Positions 1,350 through 13,602 of a DNA stretch of 23,545 bases are shown in pieces. Below the pieces are notes generated by a model. The model had not been told where the DNA came from. It ran no database searches and saw only the letters and a list, made by a program, of their open reading frames with translations. How positions within the stretch are numbered: the first letter of the stretch is position 1; each line of letters opens with the position of its first letter. Both the position numbers and the translations under genes were made by a program. The stretch is from Candidatus Hydrogenedentota bacterium (GTDB lineage Bacteria > Hydrogenedentota > Hydrogenedentia > Hydrogenedentales > SLHB01). Location of the stretch: positions 1 to 23,545 of the forward strand of contig DUZM01000009.1 of assembly GCA_013349485.1 (NCBI GenBank), given 5' to 3'.

Positions 1350-1393
1350 AATCGGTGCTGCTTCGGGCGCAACAGGGCGAGAGGGCTAAAACT

Positions 1394-3370
1394 ATGGCAA
1401 AAGAAGATCCACACGCTAAATTGGGGGATGAGCTTGTTAAACAGGACCTTATCACCCGCGAGGAACTGACCACTGCCCAAAAACGTGAGCAAGAAACGGG
1501 CACGCCTTGGTACAGACAATTGATCCAAATGAAGAAAATGCCGTTGGGCGTTTTTGAGGATGTTCTGAGACGCGAGTTTCACTCCAAGACGGCCCGAGAT
1601 GAACATCAGGCGCTTGGAAACACGCTCCTTGACCTCAGTGCCATCTCCGAGGAACAGCTTACCGAGGCCCTGGCCGAGCAGAAACGAAACGGGCGTTTAC
1701 TGGGTAATATTCTTCTCGATAGAGGCTACGTGACACGGCAAACGATTGCCATTGCGCTGAGCAAACAGTACGGAATGGAGTACACCGACCTCTCTCAATG
1801 TCCCAGCGCCAAGGAAGCCCTTGACGCCGTTCCTGAGAGCATGGCGCGGAAAAATCACGCTATTCCCGTTCGACTGGAGGGCGATAAACTAACGGTTCTT
1901 GTCGCAACACCCCAAACAAGGGACCTGTTGCAAGATATGGGGATACTCCTCGGCTTGCGGCTTCACGCCATTTTAACGACAACGGATGATATTAGGGCTG
2001 AGATTTCACGGCGTTACGAGGAATTCAGAGACAAACGGAAACGGAAGCGAATACCAGAAAAGGCCCCGGCAACCAAGGCTAAGCCGGACGTTGCCAAAGG
2101 ACCTCAATCAGTTAAGAAGAAACCAACAACGCAGAAGGAGACTGAAATCGTGGCTACCGAATACGAGCAGATAGAGGTCGAAGAAGCTGAAACAGGCCGC
2201 TTCGAAGAGATTGCGCAACAGGCAACCGGAATGCCTGTTATAAAACTTGTTTCTACGATTATCGAAGGCGCCGGCAATTCCGGGGCCACCGACGTTCATC
2301 TCGACCCACAGGAGCCCGAAATGCGCGTCCGATATCGCATAGACGGGGTACTTCACGACGTCATGAGTATTCCGGCCGATATCGAGCAAGCCGTCATTTC
2401 ACGAATCAAAATCATGTCTGATATGGACATAACCGAGACACGCCACCCACAAGACGGCCATATCAGCATGCAGATCGGCGAACAAGAATACGATATTCGC
2501 GTCGCATCAATGCCAACATTCTTAGGCGAACGAGTCGTACTGCGCCTCTTGGATCAGACCTCGGTCTTGGCAGGGGTCAAGGATCTTGGCCTCGAGAATG
2601 AGGATCAGAACACCTTAACGAGGCTTATTAAACAACCTTATGGTATGGTTCTAGTGACCGGGCCGACAGGAAGCGGTAAGACGACCACCCTCTATGCAGC
2701 CCTCAACCAAAAGAACGTAATGACGGAGAGCATCGTCACGCTCGAAGATCCTGTTGAGTATCAGTTGTCAGGAATTAATCAAGTCCAAATTGACGATGAT
2801 ATCGATCTAACCTTTGCTAACTCACTCCGAGCCGCGATGCGGCAAGATATTGACGTACTTCTTGTGGGCGAGATCCGGGACGTCGAGACGGCCCGAATTG
2901 CAATTCGAGCCGCTATGACCGGCCACCTTGTGTTCAGCACACTACATACAAACGACGCACCCGAAGCAATCAGCACTTTGCGAAATATGGGTATACCGTC
3001 GTATCTTATCTCCAGTGCTTTGACGGCAGTTATCGCTCAACGTCTAGTGCGGCGAATCTGTGAGAAATGCAAGACACGATATACACCAAACAAGGCCTTA
3101 CTTAAATCTATCGGCCTTCCGGAATCACTCAAATCTTTGTATAAAGGTAAGGGATGCGATTACTGCTATCATACAGGCACAAAAGGGAGAACGGGCATTT
3201 TTGAGGTCTTGGAAGTAACGCCTGAAATCAGACGGATGATTGCTGCGGAGGAATCCACTGAAAAAATCGCCAAAATGGCCAAACTAAAGACTATGGCAGA
3301 AAGATGCCGTCTTAAAGCAAAAAAAGGCATTATCACCCCCGAGGAATTCCTGCGTGTAATAAGGACCTGA
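1394..3370 (+). CDS. Type II/IV secretion-system ATPase of the GspE/PilB/MshE family with tandem N-terminal MshEN-like domains
   Basis: Walker A GPTGSGKTTT, the Asp box and VGEIRD, and a His box are all present. There is a C-terminal tetracysteine motif (CEKC...CDYC). Two N-terminal T2SSE_N-like segments are present, for example KLGDELVKQDLITREELTTAQKREQ and ALGNTLLDLSAISEEQLTEALAEQ / RLLGNILLDRGYVTRQTIAIALSKQ. A Lys-rich linker (KRKRKRIPEKAPATKAKPDVAKGPQSVKKKPTTQKE) follows. The ATG at 1394 is preceded by GAGGG at 1381-1385. An in-frame GTG at 1355 is the alternative start used by the ORF track. Confidence 0.9.
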   Translation: MAKEDPHAKLGDELVKQDLITREELTTAQKREQETGTPWYRQLIQMKKMPLGVFEDVLRREFHSKTARDEHQALGNTLLDLSAISEEQLTEALAEQKRNGRLLGNILLDRGYVTRQTIAIALSKQYGMEYTDLSQCPSAKEALDAVPESMARKNHAIPVRLEGDKLTVLVATPQTRDLLQDMGILLGLRLHAILTTTDDIRAEISRRYEEFRDKRKRKRIPEKAPATKAKPDVAKGPQSVKKKPTTQKETEIVATEYEQIEVEEAETGRFEEIAQQATGMPVIKLVSTIIEGAGNSGATDVHLDPQEPEMRVRYRIDGVLHDVMSIPADIEQAVISRIKIMSDMDITETRHPQDGHISMQIGEQEYDIRVASMPTFLGERVVLRLLDQTSVLAGVKDLGLENEDQNTLTRLIKQPYGMVLVTGPTGSGKTTTLYAALNQKNVMTESIVTLEDPVEYQLSGINQVQIDDDIDLTFANSLRAAMRQDIDVLLVGEIRDVETARIAIRAAMTGHLVFSTLHTNDAPEAISTLRNMGIPSYLISSALTAVIAQRLVRRICEKCKTRYTPNKALLKSIGLPESLKSLYKGKGCDYCYHTGTKGRTGIFEVLEVTPEIRRMIAAEESTEKIAKMAKLKTMAERCRLKAKKGIITPEEFLRVIRT

Positions 3371-3390
3371 ACCTCAAAAAATTTTGAGGT
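3371..3390. terminator. Palindromic stem-loop immediately after the ATPase stop codon
   Basis: ACCTCAAAA-aa-TTTTGAGGT forms a ~8-bp, AT-rich stem. It lacks a clean downstream U-tract, so it is a weak intrinsic-terminator candidate. Confidence 0.3.
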
Positions 3391-3630
3391 CTAGGATCGG
3401 CTCTAGGACACTCGGGAGAGTCCAAGGAATTGCCCCACACCTACATAAAGTCGATATGCTGAGATGTTCCCAAATAATATAATTGCATTTCTTAAGGATA
3501 TGACTCTTTGCTTTTCTAAATCCCCTTTGATACGATTGCCGCATAATGGCCTCGCGGCTGATCGGCGAGCCACAGACCCGTCCGTTCAAGCCGTACGCGG
3601 GCCGGACACACGGCTCGAGGCGTGGGGCCG

Positions 3631-3670
3631 TTCAGACGATCGCCTGGGGTCGTCTGAATAGATGTTTTAT
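3631..3670 (+). terminator. Perfect 9-bp inverted repeat hairpin with a T-rich tail
   Basis: TTCAGACGA (3631-3639) and TCGTCTGAA (3650-3658) are separated by a 10-nt loop and followed by tagaTGTTTTATa. The hairpin closes a ~120-bp GC-rich pocket inside the AT-rich island and lies just upstream of the DnaA boxes. Confidence 0.35.
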
Positions 3671-3682
3671 ACGGACAAATTA

Positions 3683-4019
3683 TGTGGATAATCTGTGGAT
3701 AACCCCGGCGTGGAACATCAGCCAGCATGTCACTCATTGCCTCAGTTTATCATGCAAGTTTATGAATCATCATGAGTTACCACGACAATCTATAACTTAT
3801 AGGGGATTTCCGGAATGTCCATAACTTATTTTAAAAAAACAACTTACAGATACTATACGAACCGACGCAATCCAAAAACAACAACAAAATAGAAATGTTT
3901 CACAATCATCTACGGAACACATCATTGACACCAAAACAAACCAATTTACACTCAAAAACACCTGTGGACAATCACCAGTGTAATCTGACAAACTAGCTTG
4001 AGAAAGGCACTGTGGATCC
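3683..4019. promoter_or_regulatory. DnaA-box cluster in an AT-rich region upstream of dnaN (oriC-like)
   Basis: Two perfect TGTGGATAA boxes (reverse complement of TTATCCACA) lie at 3683-3691 and 3694-3702, head-to-tail and 11 bp apart. TGTGGACAA at 3963-3971 has 1 mismatch. TGTGGATCC at 4011-4019 has 2 mismatches. All four are in the same orientation and sit in a very AT-rich, G-depleted tract. Confidence 0.5.
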
Positions 4020-4301
4020 TATGTGATCAATTTCTGGAAACCAATCCAGAAATTCACACCGAACACTGAGATATACATTAAATGTCTAAAAACCATATTA
4101 AACTAACGACAGGCAATCCCAAAAAGACTGACAAATTCTTCACAAGTTATTCAACTTATAACCATATCACACTAGGCTTCTTACAGCGTTTTACACAAAT
4201 TTGCAGGCACTATTACGAAGATGACTAAATTATACTATAGTAATTCTTCTTTACTTCACTAAATATAAAACTTCCTAAAGCGAAACCACGGAGAGCTAAC
4301 A

Positions 4302-5408
4302 ATGAAAATCGTAATTCCTCGTGAAGATCTTCTTAATACAGTCAACAAAGTTAAGACCGTTGTGTCTCCTAAATCAGCGTTGCCCATTCTTTCACACATT
4401 CTTATGGAGTCACAAGAAAGCAGTGTTCGTCTATCTGCTACCGACTTAAAGGTTAGTATTGAATGTTCGGTGGACTGCACTGTTGAAGAGCATGGTTCTT
4501 TGACAGTTTCATCGCAGCGTTTATCATCAATATTGTCTGAGCTTCCAAATGTCGATATTGCGCTGCAGCTCTTAGAAAACAATATTATCTTGTTGGAATG
4601 TAACCGCATACAAACAAGGCTGTTTAGTATGTTGCCGGAGGAATTTCCTTCCATTCGCACCTTTGAAAGTATTGAACCGTTGGTTTTTGGTCAAAGTATG
4701 TTAAAGCGTTTACTTTCAAGAACTTCCTTTGCTATCTGTTCTGATCAGGCCCGGTATAATTTAACTGGGTTGTTGGTGGAAATCTGTGAGGGTAAATTGA
4801 CGGTCGTTGCAACCGATGGTCGCCGTATGAGTCTATGCACTGAAAGAGAAGGTGTACCAGAAGGTATCGAAGTTAAGATAGTGATCCCTGGAAAAATGAT
4901 AAATGAATTAGAACGATTGCTTGCGGATGAAGGTAATGTAGATGTCCTCATTGATGAAAATCAAGCTGCTTTCACATTTGGCAATGTGCGTCTAGTTACA
5001 GCCCTTATTGAAGGAAACTTTCCAAAGTATGACATGGTAGTGCCCAAGAAACATGATAAGGAAGCAATATTGAATACGTTACAGTTTCTTGAAGCTGTGC
5101 GCCGTACTCGGACAATGACAAACGAGAAATTTAACTCTGTAAGGTTTGGGTTGACTTCGGGTGTAATGACGTTGAAGGTAGTTACACCTGAAGTGGGTGA
5201 ATATCAGGAAGAATTTCCGATCGAATATGACGGTGAGCCCATTGAGATTGCCTTTAATCCAGACTATGTGCTTGACGTCTTGCGTCGTATAGATTCAGAA
5301 AAAGTATGTTTAGTATTGAAGGATTCTATGAATCCAGGTCTGATTAAGCCGGCCAGTGAAGAACCCGTAGATAATTATCTTAACGTCGTTATGCCTATTC
5401 GTATATAG
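4302..5408 (+). CDS. dnaN: DNA polymerase III beta subunit (sliding clamp)
   Basis: The 368-aa product aligns along its whole length to E. coli DnaN. Matched blocks include MKIVIPREDLL, PILSHIL, ATDGRRMSL, EGNFPKYDMVVPK, NEKFNSVRF, IAFNPDYVLDVL and a C-terminal VVMPIRI. The RBS is GGAGAG, 7 nt upstream. By eye the gene is about 40% GC, clearly below its neighbours. Confidence 0.95.
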   Translation: MKIVIPREDLLNTVNKVKTVVSPKSALPILSHILMESQESSVRLSATDLKVSIECSVDCTVEEHGSLTVSSQRLSSILSELPNVDIALQLLENNIILLECNRIQTRLFSMLPEEFPSIRTFESIEPLVFGQSMLKRLLSRTSFAICSDQARYNLTGLLVEICEGKLTVVATDGRRMSLCTEREGVPEGIEVKIVIPGKMINELERLLADEGNVDVLIDENQAAFTFGNVRLVTALIEGNFPKYDMVVPKKHDKEAILNTLQFLEAVRRTRTMTNEKFNSVRFGLTSGVMTLKVVTPEVGEYQEEFPIEYDGEPIEIAFNPDYVLDVLRRIDSEKVCLVLKDSMNPGLIKPASEEPVDNYLNVVMPIRI

Positions 5409-5565
5409 CAAAGTACTTAAGTGTATGTAGATATATTTGTAGATTTTTTTGTCAGAAACGTTTAACAGAGAAGTGGGGAGTTTCGAGCAAGAAAATCGAA
5501 AGAAAGCAATTTCCTGTCAGTAGTTTGTTTTCCGGCCGTTTCTTTCTGAGCCCAGAGGTGAAATT

Positions 5566-8500
5566 CTATCCAAGCCCGTCCGCTGGTTCAACCGATGCAG
5601 CCGGTCCCACCTCGAGATCATCTGAGAAGTCCTGCATAGCTTCTTCAGACAATATAGCTTGGGTATCCTGATAGTGTGGGCTACCGGTTCCTGCCGGGAT
5701 AAGATGTCCGATTATCACGTTTTCCTTCAACCCACGCAGATAATCTCGTTTACCGGACAAGGCGGCGTCGGTCAGCACCCGAGTGGTCTGTTGAAACGAA
5801 GCAGCAGCAATAAAGCTTTCGGTGCTTAGGGCCGATTTCGTGATGCCTTGGAGAATAGGCTCGGCCTCGGCCGGTCGGCCGCCTTTGGCCAATGTTTGCT
5901 CATTAGATTCCTGGAATCGGATCCGATCTACTTCTTCGTGGGCTAAGAAAGGGGTATCGCCGGGATCGTCCTTGATTTTCACTTTCCGCAACATTTGACG
6001 AATGATGATCTCGATGTGTTTGTCATTAGTACGCACGCCCTGTAAGCGATACACGTGCTGAACTTCATCCAGAAGATATCGACGCAATGCGTCTTCGCCT
6101 TGCACTTCGAGAATATCGTTTGGGATGACGGGGCCGTCTGTAAGCCGCTGGCCCGCCATAACGCGATCGCCGGTTTGGACATTCAAATGTTTTCCAGGTG
6201 GGATAACGTATTCGCGTTCCTTGCCGACGGGCGGCATAACTCGAACTTTCCGCATGCCCTTTGTAGCGCCGCCGAGTTCTACGATTCCGTCAATGTGACT
6301 TATTATGGCGGGATCCTTTGGTTGGCGCGCTTCGAATAGCTCCGCGACCCGGGGTAACCCGCCAGTAATGTCCTTTGTCTTGCTGAATTGCCGCGGTGTT
6401 TTGGCCAGCAGATCGCCTGCCCGGACCTTGGCGCCGTCCTCGACGACGACGTGGGTCTGTGCCGGCACGGTCGCGTAGGCCAATACTTCGTCATTCTTAC
6501 CCAAAATCGTGATCTGGGGGTGCAGATCTTGCTTATGATCCGTAATGACACGTTCGATAAGACCTGTGTCCGGGTTCGTATCCATGCGCATGGTTACGCC
6601 TTCGACCATGCCCTCGAGATGCACCATCCCACTGGCCTCCGCCACGATGGACACGTTGTAGGGATCCCACTCGAAAAGGAGTTGACCCTTCCGGAGTTTC
6701 TTGCCGTCCTCGGCGAAAACCGTGCAACCTGACGGCACCGGATAACGCTGAACTTCCTTCCCTTCAGCATCGAACACGGCCAGTTCGCCGCCGCGGTTCA
6801 CTACGACGAGGTTGCCGTCTCGGTTCTTGGCTGTGCGCACGTTGCGGTGCTCGACGGTGCCGGAGTCGGGCATACGGATCTCGCTTGCTTCGACTTGGCG
6901 CGTTGCAGTACCGCCGACGTGAAACGTCTGCATGGTTAACTGGGTGCCCGGCTCGCCAATGGACTGAGCTGCAATGATTCCCACGGCTTCACCAAGTTCG
7001 ACCAGCTTGCCTGTAGCCAAGTTTCTGCCGTAACACTTGGCGCATACGCCCCGCTTTGCTTGGCACGTTAACACCGAACGAATACGCACGCCAGGAAGCC
7101 CCGAGTCAACTATCTGGCGGGCTTTCACTTCGTCGATTTCGTCCCCGGCCCGGACAATCGGTTCTTTTCTTCCTGGCACACCGACGTCGTCGAGTACATA
7201 ACGGCCGACCAGGCGTTCCTCGAGTGGGGCAACGACCTCTGCGCCGTCCATTAAGGCTTCCATCCAAATGCCATTGAGCGTGCCGCAGTCGACTTCCTCA
7301 ACGCTCGCGTCTTGCGCAACGTCGACCAAGCGTCGGGTAAGGTAGCCGGCGTCGGCCGTCTTGAGCGCCGTGTCCGCCAACCCTTTGCGTGCGCCGTGCG
7401 ATGAAATAAAGTACTCGACCACCGACAATCCTTCCCGGAAGTTTGACGTGATCGGCGTTTCGATAATGTCGCCGCTCGGCTTGGCCATCAGGCCGCGCAA
7501 CCCCGCCAACTGGCGCACTTGCTGTTTGTTTCCGCGCGCCTTGGAACTCATCATCAGATAGATGCCGCTGAACCCTTGGTCGTTCTCGGCCATCCGGCGC
7601 AACATGGCAGACGAAACCGATTCGGTCGTCGTGGTCCATTGATCGATGATCTTGTTATATCGTTCGCCCTCGGTGATAAGTCCATTCTGATACATCTCGT
7701 CGATACGCGCGACCTCGGATTGAGCAGATTCAATAAGCTCTTCTTTCTCGGGCGGTACAAGCATGTCGGATACGGCGATGGAGATGCCGGCCAAGGTTGC
7801 GTACTTGAACCCGACCGCCTTCAACGCGTCCAGCAGGCCGATGATTTTCTCGTGACCCAACCTGGCGTAACCGCTTGTGATGATGTCGCCGATTGACCCC
7901 TGATTCTGCTCGCGGTTGACGTCTTCGAGGGTTATCTCGTTCGGAAGCGCTTGCCAGAAGAGAACGCGCCCGACCGTCGTGTCGATAATGCTGTTGTTGT
8001 GCCGGATCTTGACGGCCGCATGCAGTCCAGTTTCGCCCGTCTCGTAGGCCAGAATCACCGACGCTGCATCCACAAAGATCTTGCCCGGCCGTTTGATCCC
8101 CGGCAGTCTTAGCTCGCCCCTTTTGACTTTCTCAGGGATCCGATACACATGCCCCTCTCGCCATTCGCCCCAGGCCTTCTGCCACTCCCCCTTTGCGCCT
8201 TCCCGACGCTTGGTGACGTAGGCAATGCCAAGGACGATGTCCTGGCTCGGGGTAACGATGGGGCGGCCGTAGGACGGCGAGAAAATGTTTGTGCTCGAAA
8301 GCATAAGCAACCGCGCCTCGAGCTGCGCCGCAGGCATAAGCGGCACGTGCGCCGCCATCTGGTCGCCGTCGAAGTCCGCGTTGAACGCCCGGCAGACCAA
8401 GGGGTGGATGCGAATCGCCTTCCCTTCTATCAGCACCGGCTCGAACGCCTGTATGCCCAAACGGTGCAACGTGGGTGCACGATTGAGCAAGACGGGATGA

Positions 8501-9738
8501 TCCTTGATGACGTCCTCGAGAATGTCCCAGACCTCTTCCCGCCCTTGTGCAATGGTTCGCTTCGCCGCTTTGATCGTCGTCGCGATTCCGCGTTCCTTCA
8601 GTTCGTGAATGATGAATGGCTCGAACAGCTCGAGCGCCATCTTCTTCGGCAGGCCGCACTGATGCAGTTTAAGTTCGGGACCTACGACAATGACGGAACG
8701 GCCCGAGTAGTCCACGCGTTTCCCGAGCAAATTCTGGCGGAAACGCCCTTGTTTGCCCTTCAGCATATCACTGAGCGATTTGAGTGGGCGGTTCCCTGCG
8801 CCGAGCACCGTGCGGCCGTGTCGCCCATTGTCGAACAGGGCGTCCACGGCTTCTTGGAGCATGCGCTTTTCATTGCGCAGGATTACTTCAGGGGCGCGTA
8901 GCTCGATAAGCCGCTTGAGCCGGTTGTTGCGATTAATCACGCGCCGGTAAAGGTCGTTCAGGTCGCTCGTGGCGTATCGCCCACCCTCGAGCGGCACCAG
9001 CGGGCGCAGGTCCGGCGGGATGACGGGTATGACGTCGAGCACCATCCAGGTCGGGTTGTTCCCGCTCTTGCGCAGCGCTTCGACTACTTTCAGTCGCTTG
9101 ATGGTCTTGGTTCGGGCCTGCATGCTGGACGTGTTGGCAAATGCGGCGTGAAGCTCGGCGCTTAGTGCGTCCAAATCTACTTCTTCAAGCAGCATTTTGA
9201 CGGCTTCGGCGCCCATCTTCGCGGTGAATCGGTCGCCCCACTCCTCCCGCGCGTCCTGATACTCGTCCTCGGTCAAAGTCTGCATCTTGTCGAGGGTGCT
9301 GTCGCCGGGATCGATTACCACGTAGTTCTCGAAATAGATGATGCGTTCGAGGACGCGAATGCTCAGGTCGAGCAGGTTGCCGATGCAGCTCGGCGTGTTC
9401 TTGAAGAACCAGATGTGGGTAACCGGCACGGCGAGTTTGATGCAGCCCATTCGTTCCCGGCGGACTTTGCTCTCGGTGATCTCGACGCCGCATCGGTCGC
9501 AGGTGATGCCGCGGTGTTTCACTTTCTTGTACTTTCCGCAACCGCATTCCCAGTCCTTGACGGGGCCGAAAATGCGCTCGCAAAAAAGCCCGTCTTTCTC
9601 AGGCTTGAATGTGCGGTAGTTTATGGTCTCCGGCTTTTTCACCTCGCCTCGGCTCCATTTCAGGATTTCCTCGGGGCTGGCAAGCCGAATCATCAATGCA
9701 TCGAATCGTTCACCGGTTGTTGCGACGTATTTAGGCAA
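5566..9738 (-). CDS. rpoC: DNA-directed RNA polymerase subunit beta'
   Basis: The 1390-aa product carries the N-terminal zinc-binding CGCGKYKK...CDRCGVE motif and the catalytic [15 protein letters not shown] motif. It is typical beta' throughout. Confidence 0.98.
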
Positions 9739-9741
9739 GGT

Positions 9742-12700
9742 CTACTCCTCCAACGGTTCTTCTTCTTCATCGAGTTCGGCAGCCGTATCCACTTTGACCA
9801 ATTTAATGACGTCCAGGCAGAGACTCTGCATTTCCCGCATCAGTACGTTAAATGACTCCGGCGTGCCCGGTTCGACCTCGCGTTCACCTTTCACAACGGC
9901 TTCGTACGCCTTCGTGCGCCCCTGAATATCGTCCGACTTGATGGTCAACAGTTCCTGAAGCGTGTATGCCGCACCGTAAGCCTGCAGCGCCCATACCTCC
10001 ATTTCGCCGAATCGTTGCCCGCCGAATTGGGCCTTGCCCCCGAGTGGCTGCTGCGTCACCAGTGAGTACGGCCCTATGGCCCGGGCGTGGATCTTGTCGT
10101 CGACAAGATGGTTCAGTTTCATCATATAGATGTAGCCGACGGTCACCTGTTGGTCGAATACACGGCCCGTCCGGCCGTCGCGCAGCCCGATTTTCCCGGT
10201 TTCGGGAAGGTTTGCCTTCTTCAGGAAGTCGCGGATGACGTTTTCGGAGGCCCCATTGAAAACGGGCGAGGCGACTTTCATTCCGAGCGCATGCACGGCC
10301 CACCCAAGGTGGGTCTCGAGCAGTTGGCCTACATTCATGCGCGAGGGAACCCCCAGCGGATTCAGCAGGATTTGCACGGGCGTGCCGTCGGGCAGGAAAG
10401 GCATGTCCTCGGCGGGCAGGATTTTCGCAATGACGCCCTTGTTGCCGTGGCGGCCTGCTACCTTGTCGCCGACGGCCAAGCGGCGTTTTGTGGCTACAAA
10501 CACCTTTACCTGCTTGATGACGCCGGGCGGTAGTTCGTCGCCTTTCCGGAGCATGTCTATTCGGCTGTCCCGAAACGCAATGAGTTTGGCTTCCTCCATG
10601 GCGGCCATGTTAACCAGACGGGTCAGCTTCTGTTGGGTTTTCTTGTCTTCGATCTTGAGTCGCGCCAGCACGCTGTAATCGAGTTTGTCGAGATGGGCCA
10701 CTTTGATCTTTTTGCCCTTCTCGAGCGCCAATTCGTCCGTTCTGTGGTCGACGACGTCCTCAAGGATCTTGAGCCCCACAAGGTCGTCGCGCAAGAGCTT
10801 GAGAAAGATGCCGCGGATCTCGTCGATCTTTTCTTGGTATTGTTTTCGGAGTCTGTTCACTTCGGCGTTAAGCGCGGACTTCGAACCGCCGTCCGCTGTC
10901 TTGTCGCGGCGGCTACACACGCGTACGTCGACGATCACGCCTTCGGCCCCGGGCGGCAGGGTCAACGAGGCGTCCCGCACGTCCTCGGCCTTCTCGCCGA
11001 AGATGGCCCGCAGCAGCTTTTCTTCGGGCGCCAGTTCGGTTTCCCCTTTGGGGGTGACTTTGCCGACTAGGACGTCGCCGGGTTTTGCTTTTGCGCCGAT
11101 CCGGACAATCCCGTTCTCGTCCAGGTTTCTCAGAGCCTCCTCGCTCACATTCGGAATGTCGCGGGTGATTTCTTCCGGGCCGAGTTTCGTGTCCCGGGCC
11201 TCGATGTCAAACACCTGGATGTGGATTGACGAGAACACGTCTCCTTTCACCAGGTCTTCGCTGATAAGAATTGCGTCCTCGAAGTTGTAGCCTTCCCAAG
11301 GCAGGAACGCGCACAGGACGTTCCGGCCAAGGGCCAATTCGCCCCGATCGGTGGCGGGGCCGTCCGCAATGATATCGCCCGCTTCGACTTTGTCGCCCTT
11401 CTCGACGATTGGACGCTGATTGATGCAGGTGTTCTGGTTTGATCGGATGAACTTTTTGAGGTGGTATTCGTCCTCGTCCGCCCGGAACGGATTGTCTTGG
11501 GCGTCCCGTTTCGAGTGGCGGATGCGGACGATCTCGCTGTCCACGTACTCGACTACGCCGGAGCGCTCTGCGCAAACGACCGTGCCTGTGTTCTTTGCGG
11601 TTACGTGTTCAAGCCCTGTGCCGATCAGCGGCGAGTCCGTTTGAAGCAGGGGCACGGCCTGACGTTGCATATTCGAGCCCATCAGCGCCCGGTTGGCGTC
11701 GTCATGCTCGAGGAATGGGATGAGCGCTGCGGCCACGCTCACAAGCTGCTTCGTGGATACGTCCATATAGTCCACCTGTCGCGGCTCGACTTTCGGAAAG
11801 TCGCCCCGGTGACGCGCCAACACCTGCGGATTGACGAACCGCCGGCGCTTGTCGAGCGGCGCGTTCGCCTGAGCAATGATATAGTTGTCCTCGTCGTACG
11901 CGGAAAGGTACTCGACTTGACCGGCGACCTTCCCGTTGTCCACTTTGCGGTAGGGCGTCTCGAGAAAACCGTATCGATTTACGCGAGCGTACGTAGACAG
12001 CGACGCCATCAAGCCGATGTTGGGACCTTCAGGGGTCTCGATCGGGCAGATTCTACCGTAGTGCGTTGGGTGCACGTCCCGCACTTCGAAACCGGCCCGT
12101 TCGCGGCTCAACCCGCCAGGGCCCAAGGCGCTTAACCGGCGCTTATGAGTCAGCTCAGCCAGAGGATTGATCTGTTCCATGTAATGAGAGAGTTGGCTCC
12201 GGCCGAAGAAATCCTTAATTACGGCGCTGACGGGTTTTGGGTTGACTAGGCTCTGAGGCGTGAGTTGGTCTTCGTCCTGAAAATTCATGCGTTCGCGGAC
12301 GGTGCGTTCCATGCGCACCAGGCCGACGCGCACCTGATTGGCGAGCAGTTCCCCCACCGCGCGCACCCGGCGGTTGCCCAGGTGGTCGATGTCGTCTAAC
12401 ACTCCCTCGCCGCCTCGCAGCCGTACAAGATACTTAAGCGTCGCCACCACATCTTCCGGCGTTAGCGTTTTGGTTTCTTGAGGAATCTCTAACCCTAACT
12501 TCCTATTGATCTTATAGCGGCCAACCGGGGCAAAATCGTACCGGCTCGGATCGAAAAACAGCCGGCGGAAGAAAGTCCGCGTTGTTGAATCCGTTGCCGG
12601 GTCGCCAGGTCGGATGCGGGCGTAGATTTCCCGGAGAGCATCCTCTTGACTCTGGGTCGAATCCTGACATAGCGTGTTAATGATAGACGAATCCCTGGAA

Positions 12701-13602
12701 ACATCCTCTGCATTGATCAAAACCAACGTCTTTACATGAGACTTCGTGAGCCGGTCAATGGCGATCTCTGTGAGTTCTTCCGCGGCATCAACCAGAATTT
12801 CGCCGGTCTCAGGGTCGATTACGTCGCTCGCGACGATCCGGCCGGCCAGTTCCTCGATATAGATCGATCTACTCCCGATTTTGACCTTACTCCGGCCGAC
12901 GGCGGCCTCCTCGATGCGGTAGAAGAGCTTGAGAATGTCCTCGTTCTCAACGTATCCAAGGGCCCGCAGAATGGTCGTGGCCAGAATGCGCGAGCGGCGG
13001 TCAATGGTAAGCCACAGCAGGTCGTTGATGTCATACTCGAACTCGAGCCACGCGCCACGGTACGGAATGACCCGCGCAGAGAGCAGTGCTTTCCCGTTCT
13101 GGTGAATCTTGGTTTCGAAAGATACGCCGGGGGACTTGTGCAACTGACTTACGATCACCCGCTCGGCGCCGTTCACAATGAACGTCCCCGTGGGCGTCAT
13201 CAGCGGCAACTCGCCTAGAAACACTTCCTGCTCCACTATCATTCGTTCGCGGACCTCGTTCGACGTGCCGACTTCTTCATATCGGACTAGGCGAAGCAGC
13301 GCTTTCAGAGACGCCGCATACGTCAGGCCCCGCTGTTGGCATTCCTCGATGGTGTACTTGGGAGGGGTGAAAGAGTAATGGACGAACTCGAGTCGCGTCA
13401 GGTTGTCCGGGGAGGCGACAGGAAACACGTCGTGGAAAACCTCTTGAAGCCCCATGGGCAAACGCTCATCGGGAGGCACGTCCCACTGAAGGAAATCACC
13501 GTACGACTTCGTTTGAATCTCAATCAGGTCGGGGAGGTCCATTTCGTCGGGTATGCGCCCAAGAAAGGGACGGTCTTTGGACATATCGTGCGCTACAGCC
13601 AT
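9742..13602 (-). CDS. rpoB: DNA-directed RNA polymerase subunit beta
   Basis: The 1286-aa product matches typical beta-subunit blocks throughout, for example the N-terminal [39 protein letters not shown]. Its stop is 3 nt upstream of the rpoC start. The RBS is AGGAGA. Confidence 0.98.

Follow-up and report, generated by a model that had tools for sequence, protein, structure and literature searches.

Conserved sequence features upstream of dnaN point to a predicted chromosomal replication origin in Hydrogenedentota

We analysed a 23,545-nt contig (DUZM01000009.1 of assembly GCA_013349485.1; hereafter the window) from the metagenome-assembled genome (MAG) of an uncultured Hydrogenedentota (Candidatus Hydrogenedentes) bacterium, in which a 931-bp intergenic spacer (positions 3371-4301) separates a gene for a PilB/GspE-like secretion or pilus ATPase (1355-3370, plus strand) from dnaN, which encodes the 368-residue DNA polymerase III beta sliding clamp (4302-5408, plus strand). 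The greater part of this spacer, from about 3683 to 4262, is likely to be the chromosomal replication origin (oriC) of Hydrogenedentota, of the type that is linked to dnaN and has dnaA encoded elsewhere. This reading is supported by an array of DnaA boxes at fixed positions, by a module in which boxes are followed by trio-like repeats and an AT-rich element, and by a switch in GC skew at the locus that recurs across the phylum. DnaA binding, the unwinding site, and promoter function are all predicted here. An earlier note, made from the letters of this stretch alone, had proposed an origin in a lineage with unlinked dnaA as one of three possible readings, and it is this proposal that the conserved array, the unwinding module, and the skew switch favour.

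The left edge of the array is formed by two tandem, perfect DnaA boxes on the minus strand (3683-3691 and 3694-3702; TGTGGATAA, equal to TTATCCACA on the minus strand), whose starts are 11 bp apart. Further toward dnaN are a minus-strand box with one mismatch at 3963-3971 (plus-strand TGTGGACAA), which occupies the conserved -333 position of the phylum array, and a minus-strand box with two mismatches at 4011-4019 (plus-strand TGTGGATCC, aligned to the consensus ACTGTGGATAAG), which occupies the conserved -286 position and is oriented like the 3963-3971 box and the tandem pair. The sequence thus bears out the earlier description of two perfect boxes 11 bp apart with two degenerate boxes in the same orientation. 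Only about 0.007 perfect 9-mer boxes would be expected by chance in a spacer of 931 bp, compared to the two found. In total, positions 3683-4197 hold two perfect boxes, one box with one mismatch, and two boxes with two mismatches, making an intergenic cluster of at least three boxes, and there is no further DnaA-box cluster elsewhere in the 23.5-kb window.

The same array recurs throughout the phylum. A scan of species-representative genomes recovered 79 dnaN loci, nearly all of them from named Hydrogenedentota, and in 62 non-redundant loci the order is ATPase, spacer, and dnaN, with the ATPase gene directly upstream on the same strand and a spacer of 388-1294 bp; the genes beyond the ATPase and dnaN vary from genome to genome. 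Spacers in these 62 loci contain on average 4.3 boxes with at most one mismatch, which fall at offsets of about -614/-603, -333, -286, -246, -183, -160, -106, and -30 from the dnaN ATG, the -333 and -286 boxes having the same orientation as the -614/-603 pair and the -246 box the opposite one. The window boxes at -619, -608, -339, and -292 agree with this map, and 53 of the 62 relatives have an equivalent of the tandem pair, at about -600 to -620 and likewise in an 11-bp register. Compared to the remaining ~20 kb of these loci, the 700 bp upstream of dnaN are enriched 25-fold in boxes with at most one mismatch and 47-fold in perfect boxes. In loci that do not have the ATPase gene, the box array is still found beside dnaN.

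The side of the spacer next to dnaN holds the second component of the predicted origin. An alignment of 55 Hydrogenedentota spacers showed a conserved module about 90 bp before the dnaN ATG, consisting of a box, a degenerate second box, a short GC cluster, trios, and an AT-rich stretch. The phylum consensus at the proximal boxes is TT(A/T)TCCACA-g-TTTCC-CAG-cC, and the consensus of the trios is CC-CTA-CTA-CKA-YGA-CTA-CTT-gttttatatataaa. Aligned to these in the window are a box with two mismatches (TTTTACACA), a degenerate box (AATTTGCAG), and the triplet GCA (4189-4209, plus strand), followed by the DnaA-trio-like repeat CTA TTA CGA AGA TGA CTA (4210-4227, plus strand), which equals trios of the 3'-GAT-5' type on the bottom strand, and then by an AT-rich stretch (4228-4262) that is by its composition a candidate DNA-unwinding element (DUE). 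Directly after the trios, A+T makes up 80% of 30 nt in the window, and for the equivalent stretch of relatives the share ranges over 53-93% and is mostly 60-90%. At the trio site of relatives, 40 of 77 loci match at four or more of the six triplets and 18 of them at five or more, where the background is 1e-5 per position. We regard the unwinding module of the window itself as recognisable but weak. A module to the left of the tandem pair was also considered, given that the pair points left, yet no trio-like repeat is present there, and the module that we retain is the one on the dnaN side.

These elements can be arranged into a tentative order of events. By analogy with the basal unwinding system (BUS) of Bacillus, DnaA would fill the high-affinity tandem boxes at 3683-3702 together with the weaker boxes over the next ~500 bp. 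An oligomer of DnaA would start at the plus-oriented box at 4189-4197, grow over the CTA-type trios at 4210-4227, and open the AT-rich stretch at 4228-4262, ~40 bp ahead of the dnaN start codon. A promoter-like motif upstream of the box pair would probably put transcription toward dnaN under the control of DnaA as well.

The third line of evidence comes from GC skew. Across species, and leaving out the two conserved genes, plus-strand GC skew averages -0.045 on the left side of the locus and +0.026 on its right side, and the right side has the higher value in 41 of 49 loci (p = 4e-8). The effect holds within each gene orientation, and after regression on orientation a side effect of +0.034 is retained, the right side being higher in 45 of 54 species (p = 4e-8). 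A change from C-rich to G-rich polarity is that of an origin, not of a terminus. At the scale of a chromosome, we examined one lineage through two closely related assemblies with identical DnaN, a 5.11-Mb chromosome (OY782877.1, with dnaN at ~1,965,727) and a 3.55-Mb contig. On the 5.11-Mb chromosome the plus-strand skew is -0.05 in the left flank of dnaN, +0.155 in its right flank, and +0.166 at the rpoBC locus 0.53 Mb to the right, and on the 3.55-Mb contig it is -0.16 at the hisS locus 0.78 Mb to the left of dnaN. At both of these distant loci, the sign of the skew is equal in genes of either orientation. Within the window, skew is negative to the left of the locus, slightly negative in rpoBC, and positive past 13.8 kb, even in genes on the minus strand.

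Several observations weigh against an active origin at this position. First, the predicted origin of the window is degenerate: only three of its boxes have one mismatch or none, several conserved box positions have been lost, and of the six trio triplets three match [CT]T[AT], with only two consecutive ones retaining the conserved middle base. The cumulative skew of the contig, a check suggested in the earlier note, has only a local minimum near the locus (~4.2-4.6 kb, at about 4.4 kb), and its global minimum is at ~13.8 kb, because the minus-strand genes rpoC (5566-9738) and rpoB (9742-13602) are slightly negative in plus-strand skew. With an origin here, these two genes would also be transcribed head-on toward it, which is unusual. 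Second, the species in the skew test are phylogenetic kin, so that the p-values given above overstate their independence, and there is no leading-strand bias in gene orientation: of the coding bases in the 10 kb on either side of dnaN, the plus strand carries 55% on the left and 45% on the right (loci L005-L088). Third, skew does not switch locally in one relative, whose dnaN lies on a 2.03-Mb contig (CAXXYE010000009.1; loci L033, L091, and L095) and which keeps the array and the trios; rpoBC of this relative is found 137 kb to the right of dnaN, where it is head-on and has skew of the opposite sign. Lastly, the canonical dnaA of the phylum, with domain IV, was not found in our scans of dnaN flanks and metagenomes, which did not extend to whole genomes, and a second cluster of boxes could lie beside it.

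Some of these anomalies appear to be local. The junction between dnaN and rpoC occurs only in this species, and all relatives have another gene downstream of dnaN. In two of three long contigs, the 5.11-Mb chromosome and a 1.61-Mb contig, rpoBC is co-directional with the predicted fork, as are the ribosomal-protein operons of the 1.61-Mb contig. Given that the genes past rpoB in the window keep a positive skew even on the minus strand, the arrangement suggests a local and fairly recent inversion that brought rpoBC beside dnaN. On the 2.03-Mb contig, the ATPase gene upstream of dnaN is absent and a locus 1.1 Mb to the right of dnaN has the predicted sign of skew; a large rearrangement beside the origin is suggested for this contig. 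We also considered that the window may carry a former or secondary origin, with the array inherited and initiation moved elsewhere in this species, which would account for the lost boxes, the weak trios, the head-on rpoBC, and the presence of an array with no skew switch in the 2.03-Mb relative. This is very improbable, in that the two boxes of highest affinity are perfect and the AT-rich element is intact, the skew past rpoB is that expected to the right of an origin, the position of rpoBC is explained equally well by a local inversion, and no other box cluster is available within the 23.5 kb.

A different question is whether the spacer is regulatory. At 3508-3536 on the plus strand we read a sigma-70-like promoter motif, TTGCTT-N17-TACGAT with TGa before the second hexamer, which points toward the origin and dnaN. 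In 21 of 53 relatives, the tandem box pair is preceded at a distance of 33-35 nt by the motif TTGCTT-N17-TAGCAT with an upstream TG, against a background of 0.0014 per 130 nt, and it is plausible that transcription from this predicted promoter toward oriC and dnaN is sensitive to DnaA. In E. coli, gidA and mioC lie on either side of oriC, transcription from a promoter is directed toward the origin, and DnaA autoregulates the promoter of its own gene. The Hydrogenedentota spacer is similar to these systems in having a putative promoter directed toward the origin with high-affinity boxes just downstream, but its box arrangement and flanking genes differ from those of E. coli oriC, and the putative promoter is a conserved motif only.

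It could therefore be argued that the spacer is a DnaA-controlled region and nothing more, either a dnaN promoter and leader or a DnaA-titrating cluster similar to datA, and that replication starts elsewhere, for example beside dnaA. The conserved spacing between the motif and the tandem pair is in keeping with such a role, as is the fact that the dnaN promoter must fall somewhere in this spacer; the window has few good boxes, and a canonical dnaA locus that has not been located leaves room for a competing origin. We nevertheless find this explanation unlikely, since it predicts neither the change to origin polarity in 45 of 54 species and the chromosome-scale pattern seen in the lineage to which the 5.11-Mb and 3.55-Mb assemblies belong nor a box-trio-AT module at a fixed position, and since origin and regulatory functions normally coexist at origins. 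The earlier note had also raised a DnaA-regulated dnaN promoter, and this is compatible with the motif conserved in 21 of 53 relatives and probably true in part; taken alone, it leaves the skew switch and the trios unexplained.

The whereabouts of dnaA bear on both the predicted origin and its rivals. Using tblastn with E. coli DnaA as the query (validated by a match of 1.6e-42 on L095), we detected no DnaA homologue in the 10 kb on either side of dnaN at the loci of the 79 species. The hisS locus of the 2.03-Mb contig relative encodes a 685-residue protein (L095:5021-7078, minus strand) that combines an MshE-type cyclic di-GMP (c-di-GMP) motif and an MshEN domain with a long linker of low complexity and a DnaA AAA+ domain III, which is 41% identical to residues 137-366 of E. 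coli DnaA, and it has no domain IV. Orthologues of this fusion were found in ~25 metagenome loci (L096-L118 and L137) on contigs that are apparently from Hydrogenedentota, none of them with domain IV, and wherever downstream sequence is available the next gene encodes a paralogous PilB-like ATPase, in most cases with a PilT-like gene after it. The only DnaA-type gene found in the phylum has no domain IV. Proteins of 1365-1774 residues with a C-terminal DnaA AAA+ domain and, again, no domain IV make up a second family (L124-L126). The metagenome scan, which was seeded with the DnaA-like AAA+ domain of the fusion, also returned canonical dnaA genes. Most of these are followed directly by a dnaN of only 22-35% identity to that of the window and so belong to other phyla, and a few have no adjacent dnaN and could not be assigned to a taxon.

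The ATPase beside the predicted origin shares part of this architecture. Its product matches the Pfam families T2SSE (3.6e-128) and MshEN (2.4e-16), its N-terminus carries the MshE-type c-di-GMP motif with the MshEN domain (NCBIfam and Pfam), and its matches to the NCBIfam models of PilB and GspE fall under the equivalog cut-offs. The retention of an MshEN ATPase beside oriC in ~62 species while other neighbours change, together with a phylum protein that joins the MshEN module to DnaA domain III in the absence of domain IV, raises the speculative and quite unlikely idea that initiation in Hydrogenedentota is wired to c-di-GMP through MshEN domains, in which case the dip in GC content at the locus, described below, would be a second signature of an unusual origin biology. 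The MshEN-DnaA(III) protein could co-oligomerise with DnaA, or could cap DnaA filaments at the origin.

Base composition is the feature that had drawn attention to this locus. The G+C content is 0.405 in dnaN, 0.406 in the whole spacer (3371-4301), and 0.347 in its right half (3800-4301), in agreement with the earlier estimates by eye of ~40% for the gene and ~35% for the spacer, the latter holding for the right half. For the flanks, the range of 55-65% given in the earlier note is correct for rpoC (0.575) and for the remainder of the window (0.584), but too high for the upstream ATPase gene (0.503). The contrast is mainly synonymous: G+C content at third codon positions (GC3) is 0.363 in dnaN, compared to 0.65-0.78 in eleven neighbouring genes. 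From the low GC content, a foreign origin of the block had been suggested, in which it would be a horizontally acquired module that carries a xenologous second clamp and an origin-like site of its own. Beyond the GC3 of dnaN, it could be noted in favour of an acquired module that rpoC adjoins dnaN in this species only and that, in an incomplete MAG, a second dnaN may be encoded elsewhere.

The clamp gene itself does not fit such a history. The DnaN protein contains all three clamp domains (PF00712, PF02767, and PF02768) and scores 299.4 bits against TIGR00663, for which the cut-off is 137.65, so that its earlier designation as a bona fide dnaN is well founded. It is 100% identical to an NCBI protein labelled 'Candidatus Hydrogenedentes', and of the more than 100 full-length homologues with 68-76% identity, all ~368 residues long, the named ones are all from Hydrogenedentes except for two. 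Judged by these homologues, dnaN is the native clamp gene of the lineage. The nearest relatives of its product (76% and 73% identity) are found in genomes of 59-64% GC, where dnaN has ~50% GC and a GC3 of 0.58-0.68; no low-GC donor is thus evident, and for the same reason we rejected the import of a low-GC module from within the phylum.

The surroundings of the gene point in the same direction. The order of ATPase, array, and dnaN is shared with 62 other species, as are the box offsets, and in 61 of 62 species the GC content of dnaN is lower than that of the remaining locus, with a mean gap of 8 points. Compared to distant genes, dnaN has a reduced GC3 in 42 of 51 species (mean gap 0.085), the window representing the extreme, with a shift of -0.36 and the lowest dnaN GC3 of the 51. 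The low-GC block also has no sharp edges: GC3 in the ATPase gene slides from 0.58 to 0.43 toward the spacer, and over the last ~270 codons of rpoC it is 0.51-0.56, compared to ~0.74 over the rest of the gene. In three relatives with rpoC away from dnaN, there is no comparable fall in GC3 at the 3' end of rpoC. No tRNA gene was detected in the window by ARAGORN, no mobility-related domain was found among the scanned window proteins, and nothing related to mobility was seen in or beside the block. With homologues from the same phylum, an arrangement shared by 62 species, graded borders, and neither a tRNA gene nor a mobility domain, the block does not have the appearance of a genomic island, and an acquired module with a second clamp is extremely unlikely, the least probable of the explanations considered here. 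The low GC content does not reflect foreign DNA; it is a phylum-wide GC depression, centred on oriC and dnaN, in exaggerated form. Its cause could be mutational or selective.

Two further observations concern the extent of this depression. In the window, the trough in synonymous GC content spans positions 2400-6400 with its centre at 3800-5400, against a GC3 of ~0.72 elsewhere, and across the phylum there is a weaker trough, in which genes 0-2 kb downstream of dnaN have a GC3 shifted by -0.04 to -0.05.

The predicted Hydrogenedentota oriC belongs to a known kind of origin. Cyanobacteria generally have oriC next to dnaN and dnaA elsewhere, and such a location has also been described for Sorangium (PMC2650636, PMC4674748). 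As in the cyanobacteria Synechococcus, Cyanothece, and Microcystis and in Sorangium cellulosum, the origin predicted here is directly upstream of dnaN and dnaA is not adjacent. The left neighbour of oriC is in each case an unrelated gene, being a kinase in Sorangium, hemL or the open reading frame (ORF) cce_1862 in cyanobacteria (PMC2650636, PMC4674748), and the PilB-like ATPase here. Unlike in cyanobacteria and Sorangium, this neighbour is fixed across the whole phylum, and the origin of Hydrogenedentota is a prediction from sequence. The array is also longer (~580 bp with up to ~10 conserved positions), Cyanothece and Microcystis having three described boxes. The proximal box is a point of similarity, tending to TTTTCCACA in the cyanobacterial and Sorangium type (PMC2650636, PMC4674748) and reading TTTTACACA in the window and TT(A/T)TCCACA in the phylum consensus.

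The unwinding module is similar to that of Firmicutes. A BUS has been defined by at least three NAN trios on one strand, no more than 16 bp from a correctly oriented box (PMC8287927), and in Clostridioides difficile the interval between dnaA and dnaN contains the trio 5'-CACCTACTACTATTACTACTATGA-3', upstream of the unwinding element (PMC7561715). The incC (oriC2) regions of Bacillus subtilis and C. difficile have the same order and orientation as the Hydrogenedentota module, with one or more boxes, a GC cluster, 5'-CTA trios, an AT-rich DUE, and the start of dnaN (PMC8287927, PMC6669920, PMC7561715). In contrast to these species, there is no dnaA upstream, the origin is not bipartite around dnaA, and the third and fourth trios of Hydrogenedentota are usually NGA rather than NTA, the window matching at three of six. 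Thus, a dnaN-linked origin with no adjacent dnaA is a known layout, and what is new is the predicted oriC of Hydrogenedentota.

For an uncultured phylum, this prediction provides an origin together with the conserved positions of its DnaA boxes and a Bacillus-like unwinding module, and it adds to the evidence that the system of box, trio, and DUE is ancient and widespread. It also supplies a reference point for estimating growth rates from peak-to-trough ratios and for rotating Hydrogenedentota MAG assemblies, and it removes a false lead, in that a core replication gene of deviant composition is here not foreign DNA.

Other features of the window complete this description. Four other public contigs carry identical copies of the locus. 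A domain scan of the window proteins identified rpoB and rpoC and detected no dnaA, recF, or gyrB within the window, so that the canonical context of dnaA, dnaN, recF, and gyrB is indeed absent, as the earlier note had stated; the note was also right that dnaN is convergent with rpoC across an AT-rich spacer of 157 bp (5409-5565, GC 0.369), which is unique to this species. The rpoB-rpoC pair of the window is detached from the rplKAJL genes that are usually upstream of it. At another dnaN locus of the phylum (L005), two ORFs considered as candidates for parAB had no Pfam match.

Between the promoter motif and the box pair, the spacer of this species contains a GC-rich insert of ~115 bp (3546-3660, plus strand) that is found only here, its relatives having ~33-35 nt in this interval. 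It is closed by a terminator-like hairpin at 3630-3659, with a 12-bp stem followed by the T-rich tail AGATGTTTTA, and the fold of the insert, at -59.9 kcal/mol (z = -2.2), is mildly better than those of shuffled sequences. The insert matches no Rfam family, and the possibility that it is a mobile repeat was set aside, as no second copy was present in any collected locus; it could define a transcript of ~125 nt. The window as a whole contains no Rfam family. In the spacer, neither Rfam, at gathering and at permissive thresholds, nor ARAGORN detected an RNA gene, apart from a lone chance match to a snoRNA (E = 0.5). We treated two ORFs as spurious: one at 3546-3824 (plus strand), which overlaps the DnaA boxes and has no Pfam match, and one at 4259-4660 (minus strand), which is antisense to dnaN. 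Inside the spacer, positions 3830-4200 have a GC skew of about -0.3 and an AT skew of about +0.27, the top strand being rich in C and A. At the opposite end, directly after the stop codon of the ATPase gene, is a perfect 20-nt palindrome, ACCTCAAAAAATTTTGAGGT (3371-3390), which was not scored by the terminator scan and may be a terminator or a protein-binding site.

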